DNA from: a virus
Taxonomy: Duplodnaviria; Heunggongvirae; Uroviricota; Caudoviricetes
DNA: 4,241 bases
Direction: 5' to 3' (one strand)
IMG/VR virus record: IMGVR_UViG_2778261564_000010
The notes below the pieces were generated by a model. The model saw only the letters and a program-made list of their open reading frames with translations. It did no database searches and was not told the origin of the DNA. Positions 1,141 through 4,241 of this stretch are shown here, piece after piece. A program made the translations under genes and the position numbers. The number at the start of each line of letters is the position of its first letter. Positions within the stretch are counted from its first letter, which is position 1.

Positions 1141-1173
1141 GCCAGGAAAAAACAAAACCCGCCGAAGCGGGTT
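1141..1173 (-). terminator. Rho-independent terminator at the 3' end of the hok transcript
   Basis: On the minus strand: 7-bp GC-rich stem (AACCCGC / GCGGGTT) with a UUCG tetraloop, followed directly by TTGTTTTTTCC. Confidence 0.6.
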
Positions 1174-1177
1174 AAGT

Positions 1178-1192
1178 GCGGGTGCGTTGAGG
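1178..1192 (-). promoter_or_regulatory. hok mRNA 3' fold-back element (fbi-like), complementary to the 5' end of the transcript
   Basis: Minus-strand 5'-CCTCAACGCACCCGC-3' is the near-perfect complement (one bulge) of minus-strand 5'-GCGGGTGCTTGAGG-3' at 1568-1555. This long-range 5'/3' pairing is the known hallmark of hok mRNAs. Confidence 0.5.
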
Positions 1193-1241
1193 ATGCCTGA
1201 CTCATCAGAGGTGGCGAGGGATTTCCCCCTCGCCTGGTCTC

Positions 1242-2669: not shown

Positions 2670-2676
2670 TTAACTA

Positions 2677-2697
2677 CCGCCCTTTCGGGCGGCCTCC
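2677..2697 (-). promoter_or_regulatory. H element copy 2: GGAGG plus GC hairpin with GAAA loop, immediately 5' of a start codon
   Basis: Minus strand GGAGG-CCGCCC-GAAA-GGGCGG, then 7 nt, then ATG at 2669. The 23-nt core (plus strand taccgccctttcgggcggcctcc, 2675-2697) is identical to 3739-3761. Confidence 0.6.
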
Positions 2698-2724
2698 TGA
2701 TGTTCTGAGGGTGCAGAAATCCCT

Positions 2725-2781
2725 CCGGTTAAGGATTAAATTTTTAACAGAGCTAAATTTAATTATTCAGTTCTGGATTTT
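2725..2781 (-). promoter_or_regulatory. P' element: AT-rich conserved promoter/operator-like element with dyad symmetry
   Basis: Homologous to 3987-4048 (ccggttaaggattaaattttt...aatttaattattcag versus ccagttaaggattaaatttta...aacttaattattcag). Contains inverted repeat ATTAAATTT (2735-2743) / AAATTTAAT (2755-2763) with an 11-bp spacer. Overlaps the stop of the upstream 118-aa gene. Confidence 0.45.
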
Positions 2782-3119
2782 GTCGCCCTGCGTATCCGCG
2801 CTTTCGCGTTACGCTCAATCTGAATTAGCTTTTCTATATTTTTTCGCCTTTCCCGCTCCTCCTGACGCAAGAGCCTTACATCATCTGCCAGTCTGGTTTC
2901 TCTTTTCGCCACAGAGAGCATCCAGTCAAATGGTTCCACAACTGCACCGCAGATTTTACAGCGGACCTGACGCTCTTTTTCGTCAACCCGGACAGAGGCG
3001 TGATGACAATATGGTCTTTCCGATGGCTCATAAAGAAAATTAACCTGATTACGAGGGTCATCCTCTTTTACCGGAAATAAAACGATATTGCTTAACTCAT
3101 CCTCTGGTTTTATTTCCAT
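2763..3119 (-). CDS. Zinc-ribbon-like protein with basic helical C-terminus (118 aa), unknown function
   Basis: Track ORF 2763..3176 begins at a GTG immediately preceded by TGA. The preferred start is ATG 3119, preceded by AAGGAGAGGAGC. Translation: MEIKPEDELSNIVLFPVKEDDPRNQVNFLYEPSERPYCHHASVRVDEKERQVRCKICGAVVEPFDWMLSVAKRETRLADDVRLLRQEERERRKNIEKLIQIERNAKARIRRATKSRTE, with a C-H-H...C-x-x-C cluster followed by an Arg/Glu/Lys-rich tail. Confidence 0.65.
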   Translation of the reverse strand: MEIKPEDELSNIVLFPVKEDDPRNQVNFLYEPSERPYCHHASVRVDEKERQVRCKICGAVVEPFDWMLSVAKRETRLADDVRLLRQEERERRKNIEKLIQIERNAKARIRRATKSRTE

Positions 3120-3240
3120 GCTCCTCTCCTTTGATGCGAATGCCAGCGGTAATTGAAGCCTGATAGCTAATTTCACTCACAGTACCGCCTCCTGAAAATT
3201 TAATGAACAATTCAATACGTTCTTTGGTAATAGTGGTCAT
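3097..3240 (-). CDS. Small protein (47 aa), unknown function; overlaps the start of the downstream gene
   Basis: ATG 3240 preceded by AAGGAG at 6 nt, overlapping the TAA of the upstream gene. Translation: MTTITKERIELFIKFSGGGTVSEISYQASITAGIRIKGEEHGNKTRG. Ends at TGA 3097-3099, 23 nt past the ATG of the downstream gene in another frame. A diverged copy of this segment exists at 4051-4164. Confidence 0.4.
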   Translation of the reverse strand: MTTITKERIELFIKFSGGGTVSEISYQASITAGIRIKGEEHGNKTRG

Positions 3241-3515: not shown

Positions 3516-3734
3516 TCAGTTTTCCTTATACGGATTAATTTTATTGTGCAGTGTGTTGAATGACGCCCATACCACGTCGTTATACAATTCAGTAACTGGC
3601 TCAATTATTTTCCCGATTGCCCAGACAAAAATTAGAGGGGATATCGGTATCATCAATACGATAAACAGAATGAGAAACAAAAATTCTGTCGCCCTACTTT
3701 TTTGCGGATATTCTTTTCTGAATAATGTAGTCAT
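3516..3734 (-). CDS. Small single-pass membrane protein (72 aa), unknown function
   Basis: Track ORF with ATG start, 6 nt downstream of the H hairpin element. Translation: MTTLFRKEYPQKSRATEFLFLILFIVLMIPISPLIFVWAIGKIIEPVTELYNDVVWASFNTLHNKINPYKEN, with one hydrophobic helix at about residues 17-41 flanked by charged residues. The stop is adjacent to the start of the 87-aa gene. Confidence 0.6.
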   Translation of the reverse strand: MTTLFRKEYPQKSRATEFLFLILFIVLMIPISPLIFVWAIGKIIEPVTELYNDVVWASFNTLHNKINPYKEN

Positions 3735-3740
3735 TTCTTA

Positions 3741-3761
3741 CCGCCCTTTCGGGCGGCCTCC
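3741..3761 (-). promoter_or_regulatory. H element copy 1: GGAGG plus GC hairpin with GAAA loop, immediately 5' of a start codon
   Basis: Minus strand GGAGG-CCGCCC-GAAA-GGGCGG, then 6 nt (TAAGAA), then ATG at 3734. The 23-nt core is identical to copy 2 although the flanking genes are unrelated. Confidence 0.6.
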
Positions 3762-3766
3762 CGACA

Positions 3767-3979
3767 TTAATCGTTGTGGTAACTCATGGCTTCATTTGCA
3801 GCATCAACCGGATCAACCTCCCACCAGCAATAATTTGGTGCGTTTCCTTCAGGTGTCCACGGTTCCAATTCATTTTTTGCCACATTCTCGTCGCCAGTAA
3901 TTTTAAAAATCTGCTCAGAGAATTTTTTCACCCACTCGTTATATTTTTCAGTGTTAATAATTTTCTGTGTATTTGACAT
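3767..3979 (-). CDS. Small acidic protein (70 aa), unknown function
   Basis: Track ORF with ATG start preceded by GGAGGT at about 7 nt. Translation: MSNTQKIINTEKYNEWVKKFSEQIFKITGDENVAKNELEPWTPEGNAPNYCWWEVDPVDAANEAMSYHND. Lies immediately downstream of the P element. Confidence 0.65.
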   Translation of the reverse strand: MSNTQKIINTEKYNEWVKKFSEQIFKITGDENVAKNELEPWTPEGNAPNYCWWEVDPVDAANEAMSYHND

Positions 3980-3986
3980 AGATATA

Positions 3987-4048
3987 CCTCCAGTTAAGGA
4001 TTAAATTTTATTTACAGTGCTGAACTTAATTATTCAGATTTGGATTAT
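3987..4048 (-). promoter_or_regulatory. P element: AT-rich promoter/operator-like element upstream of the 70-aa gene
   Basis: Second copy of the roughly 60-bp conserved element (see 2725-2781). Ends in the GGAGG used as SD for the ATG at 3979. Contains TGTAAATAAAAT, a possible -10-like sequence. No transcription start can be called confidently. Confidence 0.4.
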
Positions 4049-4050
4049 GC

Positions 4051-4164
4051 TTTCTCTTCACGAAGTTCCGATTGTTAATTTGGCTCACAACAGCACCTTC
4101 TGAAAATTACCCTGATAGAAAGCCAGTACACGCTGCATAGCTTCGCTCTTCCGGCACTCGCTAC
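4051..4164 (-). other. Degenerate partial third copy of the cassette, truncated by the IS
   Basis: Minus-strand ...TAATTTTCAGAAGGTGCTGTTGTGAGCCAAATTAACAATCGG... aligns with the 3180-3215 region (...AAATTTTCAGGAGGCGGTACTGTGAGTGAAATTAGCTATCAGG...) but with frame-disrupting differences, and then joins directly to sequence resembling the last codons of the 118-aa gene. No intact ORF. Confidence 0.4.
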
Positions 4165-4241
4165 TGAACCGCCCCGGGAATCCTGGAGACTAAACTCCCT
4201 GAGAAAGAGGTAAACAGGATGACTAAAAATACACGTTTTTC
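4165..4241 (+). mobile_element. IS3-family insertion sequence, left end (IS629/IS1203-like), continues beyond window
   Basis: TGAACCGCCCCGGGAATCCTGGAGACTAAACTCCCTGAGAAAGAGGTAAACAGG followed by ATGACTAAAAATACACGTTTTTC matches my memory of the IS629/IS1203 left terminal repeat and orfA start. Unverified recall. Confidence 0.7.
4219..4241 (+). CDS. IS3-family transposase OrfA, first 7 codons only
   Basis: ATG at 4219 preceded by GAGG; translation MTKNTRF... Partial at the window edge. Confidence 0.65.

Follow-up and report, generated by a model that had tools for sequence, protein, structure and literature searches.

A putative split ribosome-binding site on a recombining intercistronic junction of Escherichia lambdoid prophages

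The stretch of DNA analyzed here (IMG/VR virus record IMGVR_UViG_2778261564_000010; 4241 nucleotides (nt), referred to as the window) comes from a prophage of E. coli or of a closely related bacterium and carries two identical copies of a 23-nt element, in which a Shine–Dalgarno (SD) pentamer is directly followed by a hairpin and, a few nucleotides further on, by the start codon of a gene. Judging from the sequence, we consider with moderate confidence that this 23-mer acts as a portable split ribosome-binding site (RBS) of the type found at gene 38 of phage T4, and that it resides on an intercistronic junction that recombines among Escherichia lambdoid prophages; our confidence in the history as a mosaic junction is considerably higher than our confidence in the translational mechanism. 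The latter would proceed as follows: The 30S subunit would pair with the single-stranded GGAG(G) on the polycistronic mRNA, while the all-G/C stem of 6–7 base pairs (bp) with its GNRA tetraloop would remain folded and be looped out, thereby bringing the AUG from a distance of 22–23 nt to an effective 5–8 nt from the SD. Homologous recombination in the 23-mer and in the ~105-nt cassette to which it belongs would repeatedly re-join different upstream and downstream genes.

Anatomy of the repeated element and its distance to start codons

The 23-mer GGAGGCCGCCCGAAAGGGCGGTA has exactly two exact matches in the window, at 2675–2697 (site 1) and 3739–3761 (site 2), both on the minus strand, which is the coding strand. 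In 200 dinucleotide-preserving shuffles no match occurred with up to three mismatches allowed; the repeat is real and not a product of chance. It reaches 26 nt if one mismatch is admitted (2675–2700 versus 3739–3764), after which identity ends on both sides. On the mRNA both sites read GGAGG-CCGCCC-GAAA-GGGCGG, continued by UAGUUAA-AUG at site 1 and by UAAGAA-AUG at site 2. At site 1, the GGAGG occupies 2697–2693, the 5′ arm CCGCCC 2692–2687, the loop GAAA 2686–2683, the 3′ arm GGGCGG 2682–2677 and the terminal UA 2676–2675, followed by the spacer GUUAA (2674–2670) and the ATG (2669–2667) of a DUF7167 gene. At site 2, the GGAGG (3761–3757) precedes the stem-loop (3756–3741, with the 3′ arm at 3746–3741) and the UA (3740–3739), followed by the spacer AGAA (3738–3735) and the ATG (3734–3732) of a DUF4014 gene. 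The distance to the ATG amounts to 7 nt from the end of the stem and 5 nt from the end of the 23-mer for DUF7167, and to 6 and 4 nt, respectively, for DUF4014; the two proteins belong to unrelated Pfam families.

In folding calculations on 178-nt contexts the stem pairs with probabilities of 0.99–1.0. The 23-mer alone has a predicted stability of −15.5 kcal/mol, which includes a seventh, G·U pair contributed by the last G of GGAGG, and the 42-nt regions around the two sites reach −15.9 (site 1) and −18.8 kcal/mol (site 2), the latter with a fold z of −4.5. At site 2 the GGAG of the SD is predicted to be 0.74–0.94 unpaired, the fifth G pairing with the U after the stem. A terminator scan called no intrinsic terminator at either site, where the stem is followed by the tails UAGUUAAAUG and UAAGAAAUGA and by no U tract. 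Moreover, no promoter-like (sigma-70) sites were found at either copy or in the A/U-rich cassette described below, and an Rfam scan returned no match at either site at E ≤ 1; elsewhere in the window it gave sok and weak matches at chance level. A link to the prophage Pas small RNAs (sRNAs) of a 2026 preprint was considered and dropped as unrelated.

Searching IMG/VR for exact copies of the 23-mer yielded at least 131 sites, and the site counts given in the following refer to the matches listed. In all 131 the stem is followed after 6–9 nt by a start codon or, where the copy is decayed or truncated, by what is left of one: An open reading frame (ORF) of at least 25 codons begins at this distance at 118 sites (with one odd call at 2 nt), and the remaining 13 are loci that are cut short or frameshifted copies in which the position of the start codon is unchanged. 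Four unrelated families are represented among the downstream genes, with spacers after the stem of 7 nt for DUF7167, 6 nt for DUF4014 (three sequence variants), 8–9 nt for Ea22-like genes and 9 nt for a family beginning with ‘MQEIKE’. These spacers (UAAGAA, UAGUUAA, UAAUGAAAA, UAACAAAUA) are A/U-rich and devoid of an SD, and a UAA or UAG directly follows the stem in every copy seen. The genes share the strand of the element in operons of both the PR and the PL type.

The GGAGG offers the best anti-SD complementarity of the region (−10.3 kcal/mol), at position −30/−31. It is separated from the AUG by 23 nt at site 1 and 22 nt at site 2, which is beyond the limit of ~15 nt for direct use, and no other unpaired SD lies between GGAGG and AUG at either site; the best anti-SD matches of the other genes in the window (−6 to −10.6 kcal/mol) are found at the ordinary place. 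Homologues of the DUF4014 gene that lack the hairpin carry AAAGGAGAGTGATGTG, or the variants AAAGGAGAGUGAUGUG or AAUGGGAGUGAUAUG, with GGAG 6 nt from the start. This spacing is that of GGAGG-UAAGAA-AUG, i.e., of the element with the hairpin excised. Most of what a preliminary description of this DNA had stated is thereby borne out, namely that the 23-mer is identical at two sites, 6–7 nt before the starts of unrelated genes, that it forms a 6-bp all-GC stem with a GNRA tetraloop (stem probability ~1.0), and that the hairpin is not an intrinsic terminator. The genome search for a fixed distance between 23-mer and ATG, which the same description had proposed as a check, turned out in its favor at every listed site, and of the functions it had suggested a structured or split RBS is the one that best fits the anatomy, in view of the spacing, the fold, the lack of another free SD, the hairpin-less homologues and the likeness to T4 gene 38.

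The same anatomy can be read as that of an mRNA stability or processing element, acting as a barrier to 3′ exonucleases in favor of the upstream cistron or, after cleavage in the A/U-rich cassette, as a protective stem at the 5′ end, in which case the adjacency to start codons would follow from tight gene packing. Such a role is suggested by the very stable G/C stem with its GNRA loop as well as by the intercistronic place and the adjoining A/U-rich single-stranded stretches, which resemble RNase E sites, and it could coexist with that of a split RBS. It leaves unexplained, however, why the sole strong SD is always found directly 5′ of the stem, why the distance of 6–9 nt to the AUG is constant across four families and why the spacers are free of SDs; we regard this explanation as unlikely.

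Mosaic junctions, distribution and natural variation

Upstream of the 23-mer only two contexts occur among the matches listed, which we denote types (a) and (b). In type (b) the 23-mer comes after the end of gene A (...GAUUAAUGUCG/A), which in the window lies at 3767–3979 on the minus strand, encodes a 70-residue protein of phrog_4659 and terminates with a UAA located 5 nt before the GGAGG of site 2. Type (a) is a conserved non-coding cassette composed, in this order, of a three-frame stop, an A/U stretch, a first SD (SD#1), a connector and the 23-mer, the whole junction measuring ~105 nt. The three-frame stop CUGAAUAAUUAA, which lies within a small hairpin, often serves as the final codons and stop codon of the upstream gene; the 3′ arm of this hairpin varies between AUUCAG, AUUUAG and GUUCAG, all of which still pair with CUGAAU. 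The A/U stretch leads into AAUCCUUAACYGGAGG, SD#1 reads AAUCCUUAACCGGAGG, and the 24-nt connector GAUUUCUGCACCCUCAGAACAUCA (2698–2721, minus strand, including CCCUC at 2711–2707) is kept upstream of the hairpin at most listed sites. Six or more different genes are found upstream of this same cassette.

The 5′ half of the cassette is itself present twice in the window, as direct repeats of ~68 nt with 81–90% identity. Copy 1 (2715–2782, minus strand) overlaps the stop of the upstream gene (2763–3119) and has no gene behind its SD#1; in copy 2 (3980–4049, minus strand) 7 nt separate the GGAGG from the ATG of gene A (3979). What follows a 5′ half is either gene A or the connector with the hairpin, and nothing else, and the window has both forms: copy 2 leads into gene A and the hairpin of site 2, copy 1 into the connector and the hairpin of site 1. 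Small ORFs of the window are bracketed by the direct repeats, the two hairpins being 1064 nt and the two cassette 5′ halves ~1266 nt apart. The idea that the connector of type (a) is the relic of a deleted gene A was rejected, since the sequences when read showed no convincing resemblance to the ends of gene A other than in the 7 nt after SD#1.

Seven of the eight combinations of upstream context and downstream family are found among the listed sites: type (a) stands before DUF7167 (50 sites), Ea22-like (19), DUF4014 (17) and MQEIKE genes (5), and type (b) before DUF4014 (29), Ea22-like (8) and DUF7167 genes (2); type (b) with MQEIKE is missing. In phage ArgO145 the partners are swapped relative to the window, type (b) preceding DUF7167 and type (a) preceding DUF4014. 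The array of this phage belongs to a leftward operon near int, again with the genes on the strand of the element; the junctions are used both in the nin-like region of the PR operon and in the ea/exo-xis-like region of the PL operon. Since the spacer moves with the downstream gene and the context bases move with the upstream gene, we infer that the joints lie within the shared 23–26 bases. Consequently, the identity of the two copies in front of unrelated genes would reflect their recombination history and not convergence.

In a more far-reaching interpretation, the ~105-nt junction would be a plug-in adaptor that combines a three-frame stop, an insulated initiation site and, in its invariant 23-nt core, homology for swaps by Red/RecET. 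Its parts would be the three-frame stop hairpin, the A/U-rich spacer, SD#1, the optional 70-residue gene and the clamp of SD and hairpin, and half of the E. coli genomes would carry what amounts to an integron-like, recombinase-only cassette system. We put this forward tentatively, as a possible though rather doubtful extension.

Of 5,426 complete E. coli genomes, 2,662 contain a 38-mer taken around site 1; it is present 4,914 times in all, and a single genome has up to nine copies. In phage and plasmid collections the hosts are Escherichia (coli, albertii and fergusonii), bar one record labelled Actinobacillus. A scan of contigs from one genome per species with the DUF7167 protein, aimed at deeper homologues suited to covariation analysis, led only to Shigella, to an evidently contaminated metagenome-assembled genome (MAG) and to a 37%-identical relative from Bacilli without the element. 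A MAG labelled Collinsella and the phage labelled Actinobacillus vB_Apl-pPE4 contain an E. coli-type junction cassette with 92–98% identity, and these records probably represent contamination or mislabelling rather than a real host range. In these collections the element is restricted to Escherichia and Shigella, and it is present in about half of the complete E. coli genomes; it is a young element of narrow distribution that recombination has spread.

Natural variation was surveyed in a sample that is not biased toward the hairpin, as it was anchored on the downstream genes only (266 sites, 37 distinct 35-mers). The canonical stem dominates, and 15 variant stem-loops exist, whose folds are mostly predicted at −5.6 to −12.4 kcal/mol. 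Wobble keeps the pairing in the variants CCGCCU, CCGUCC, CUGCCC and GGGUGG, and pairs are broken in CCACCC, CAGCCC, GGGCAG, GAGCGG and CCGCCA; the pair-breaking changes found in larger sampling are G3A, G2′A, G5′A, C2A and C6A. Taken over the 37 haplotypes, 94.6% of the stem cells are paired, with 17 one-sided, wobble-preserving and 12 unpaired, pair-breaking cells. An asymmetry of wobble changes in the 5′ arm (C-to-U, initially 5 versus 0) was lost with larger unbiased sampling and was discarded. Invariant in all 37 haplotypes are the GGA of the SD, the first G and the last A of the loop, the outermost C–G pair and the UA after the stem, and the fifth SD base varies between G, A and U, of which G and A are both able to pair with the U after the stem. 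As weak evidence, the invariant positions would fit an SD combined with a GNNA-closed loop. The most invariant stretch of the junction across phages is AAUCCUUAACCGGAGGGAUU, which surrounds SD#1 and is less variable than the hairpin. Three IMG/VR loci upstream of DUF7167 read ...GGGGAUCCCUCAGGCCCGAAAGGGCGGUAGUGAAAUG, which corresponds to a 14-nt deletion of the GGAGG and the first two stem bases.

Several observations weigh against a split RBS. No compensatory double change occurs in the 37 haplotypes, and every shuffle equals the observed scores; covariation is uninformative here because the lineage is too young. In hairpin-unbiased samples the hairpin is, column by column, as variable as the connector and the flanks, and as it is no more conserved than the cassette its function cannot be deduced from conservation. 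A few natural variants have a stem weakened to −2.6 to −4.6 kcal/mol or have lost the SD. At site 1 the GAGG of the SD is predicted to be only 0.03–0.14 unpaired, owing to pairing with the upstream CCCUC, and at both sites the 3′ arm AGGGCGGUA shows an anti-SD complementarity of −7.8 kcal/mol at canonical distance, available only if the stem opens. The connector CCCUC (2711–2707, minus strand) is able to pair either with SD#1 (GGAGGG, 2726–2721) or with the SD of site 1, and type (a) junctions may be weaker, or regulated, through masking of the site-1 SD. The preliminary description had taken the conservation between different genes as a sign of selection on the RNA itself; this argument does not survive, as the copies are identical through recombination, compensatory changes are lacking and the flanks are equally variable.

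One may go further and deny the hairpin any RNA function, so that it would be a boundary sequence or relic hitch-hiking with recombining modules, and translation of the downstream genes would be inefficient or would proceed in some other way. The missing covariation, the lack of any excess of conservation over the flanks, the narrow and recent distribution in Escherichia and Shigella and the loci in which the 14-nt deletion has removed the SD and part of the stem are in line with this. Yet the downstream genes would then have no usable SD and are nevertheless intact in most listed copies; the GGA of the SD, the G and A of the loop and the UA are invariant in the 37 haplotypes, and the geometry matches that of a proven split RBS. 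We consider the absence of an RNA function quite improbable.

A different role for the hairpin would be to mask the SD. Here, the working SD would be the GGGCGGU of the 3′ arm, 5–6 nt from the AUG, the gene would be translated when the hairpin is opened, for instance by ribosomes arriving from upstream, and the GGAGG would serve as a standby site at most. The complementarity of the 3′ arm at canonical distance is comparable to that of the SDs of neighboring genes, and in every copy seen the stem is followed by a UAA or UAG. Type (b) moreover contains a nine-codon mini-ORF, MSGGRPKGR* (3738–3767, minus strand; AUG UCG GGA GGC CGC CCG AAA GGG CGG UAA), whose AUG overlaps the stop of gene A (UAAUG); its frame runs across SD and hairpin to a UAA that ends 3 nt before the AUG of DUF4014, which makes translational coupling through unwinding of the hairpin conceivable. 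This mini-ORF is confined to type (b), however; in the commoner type (a) the frame has no start codon, save in a variant in which SD#1 is mutated to GGAUGG. In addition, GGnGG with its central mismatch is a poor SD beside a perfect and free GGAGG, a stem of −12.4 to −15.5 kcal/mol would block initiation almost fully, and the 3′ arm occurs in the natural variants GGGCAG, GAGCGG and UGGCGG. Masking appears to us an unlikely function, although the complementarity of the 3′ arm, the mini-ORF and the predicted pairing of the site-1 SD give some weight to masking with coupling and to a stability role; the split RBS remains the reading that we favor. The possibility that a longer ORF has its C-terminal codons in the hairpin was likewise considered and rejected: the open frame comprises at most 43 codons and has no start in junction (a).

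The surrounding gene array

The window is an accessory-gene array of an E. coli lambdoid prophage. Matches over at least 80% of its length, with 97–98% identity, are found in 69 complete E. coli genomes. The intact relative NZ_CP098219 has the region in the rightward early operon of a lambdoid prophage, in nin-like position, between replication genes on one side and hokD, rem, DUF968, RusA and the late-gene block on the other. All genes of the window lie on the minus strand. At the start of the array stands a DUF977 gene of which the 3′ part is present, as the end of an IS3-family insertion sequence (IS) cuts it at ~4166; gene A follows. The DUF4014 gene (3516–3734; 72 residues, start as annotated) encodes a membrane protein (Pfam PF13198, E = 5e-26) and is followed by three small ORFs (3514–3251; 3240–3097, 47 residues; 3119–2763), the last of which ends in copy 1 of the cassette 5′ half. 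The DUF7167 gene (2487–2669; Pfam PF23768, E = 7.9e-15) encodes 60 residues from the start annotated in NZ_CP098219. Behind it come a 58-residue ORF (2494–2318) and a decayed gene (1956–2321) with five stops in the frame of the window, whose counterpart in NZ_CP098219 is annotated as a frameshifted coding sequence with an internal stop. Next comes hokD with its sok RNA, and a rem-like gene and the start of DUF968 form the downstream end of the array.

The IS3-family end (~4166–4241) is on the plus strand, with a transposase ORF from 4219 (MTKNTRF...), and belongs to an element that we take to be IS629. Homology to intact prophages ends at 4164–4167, so the IS interrupts the DUF977 gene; the IS piece by itself matches 2,920 plasmid records. 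A 39-nt direct repeat with 77% identity (3162–3200 versus 4070–4108) connects the start of the 47-residue ORF with the 3′ end of the DUF977 gene and may be the remnant of an older junction or duplication, or a chance similarity. Toward the downstream end, at 1242–1566 on the minus strand, lies a complete type I toxin–antitoxin locus of the hok/sok type, comprising a hokD-like ORF (1397–1242; Pfam HOK_GEF, E = 1e-23) and the Rfam match to sok (1395–1566; 106.7 bits, E = 2e-24). Just 3′ of hokD the sole clean intrinsic terminator of the window (1173–1156 plus U tract) forms the end of a stretch (1152–1233, minus strand) with a weak, sub-threshold Rfam match to the Hfq-binding sRNA isrK (26 bits versus a gathering score of 50).

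Significance and comparison with known systems

If the hairpin is indeed looped out during initiation, no other natural split RBS would be nearly as widespread as this element, which occurs also in Shiga-toxin phages and in up to nine copies per genome. As its natural variants already span stem strength, loop and SD sequence, it would then lend itself to studies of how the 30S subunit copes with a folded insert between SD and start codon, with the natural SD-less DUF7167 variants as useful controls, and it would be a compact, insulated initiation part for synthetic operons. With regard to phage evolution, it is a countable example of a short functional sequence as crossover point in lambdoid mosaic exchange, which is relevant to the long debate on whether homologous or illegitimate recombination acts at module boundaries. 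With regard to annotation, these small genes would have an SD after all, which is missed by gene finders that look only 5–12 nt upstream.

A comparison with known RNA hairpins of lambdoid phages leads to boxB of the lambda nut site, to which the preliminary description had likened the element as an alternative to an RBS. Both have a small G/C stem with a GNRA-type loop and lie on an early lambdoid transcript, so that the hairpin might be recognized by an RNA-binding protein such as an N-type antiterminator. The likeness is superficial, however: The loop has four instead of five nucleotides, no Rfam match is obtained, and a conserved boxA is absent, the sole boxA-like string (AGCUCUGUUAA, ~60 nt upstream of site 1) being unconserved among copies. 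Unlike boxB, which is found just after PL or PR, the element is located deep in the operons, with two copies in a prophage and as many as nine in a genome, each of them next to a start codon. The comparison with boxB therefore does not hold, and we judge a role of this kind to be very improbable.

Closer parallels to the mosaic arrangement exist in two systems. In the PeSL cassettes of T4-type phages, an early promoter and a stem-loop are repeated between small non-essential ORFs of hyperplastic regions, and recombination between PeSL copies shuffles, deletes and replaces genes (PMC2839356, PMC4122927). As in our array, repeats flank small ORFs whose partners are shuffled among phages, but the PeSL repeat consists of a promoter and a terminator, whereas the junction described here carries translational signals, namely a three-frame stop, an SD and a hairpin. 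For the lambdoid phages themselves, short conserved boundary (linker) sequences between modules have been proposed (Susskind & Botstein 1978; Clark et al. 2001, both as cited in PMC3029335). The element agrees with them as a short shared sequence at the borders of unrelated modules, with the mosaic joints within; these proposals concern homology as such, whereas the boundary formed by the element is, by prediction, also a structured translation-initiation signal.

The closest counterpart to the predicted mechanism is found in T4. In genes 38 and 25 of this phage, a hairpin between SD and AUG reduces their distance from 22 and 27 nt to 5 and 11 nt, respectively; mutations that destabilize the hairpin lower initiation, and reporter assays together with dimethyl sulfate probing confirm the ‘split’ arrangement (PMC3014915). 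We read the gene 38 region directly, UAAGGAGAGGGGCUUCGGCCCUUCUAAAUAUG, and found an SD, a tetraloop hairpin and a short A/U spacer ahead of the AUG, with an SD–AUG distance of 22 nt and a stability of −16.7 kcal/mol for the 44-nt region. Gene 38 and the element are alike in the order of their parts (an SD, directly a tetraloop hairpin, 4–7 nt and the AUG), in the SD–AUG distance (22 versus 22–23 nt), in stability (−16.7 kcal/mol for the 44 nt versus −15.5 kcal/mol for the 23-mer) and in the stop of the upstream gene, which lies at or just before the SD (here at site 2). They differ in the loop, which is UUCG in T4 and the GNRA loop GAAA in the element, and in their occurrence, as the T4 arrangement belongs to one gene of T-even phages, whereas the element precedes at least four unrelated genes in temperate lambdoid prophages. 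Furthermore, the stem of T4 gene 25 has phylogenetic support, which the stem of the element has not; the RBS function of the element is a prediction from the sequence, and at this level its anatomy agrees with that of a split RBS. A full-text literature search for the hairpin sequence string returned no match among the papers covered, and the element appears to be undescribed so far. It is nonetheless no new kind of element but a further example of kinds already known, the split RBS and the conserved boundary sequence of mosaic genomes.

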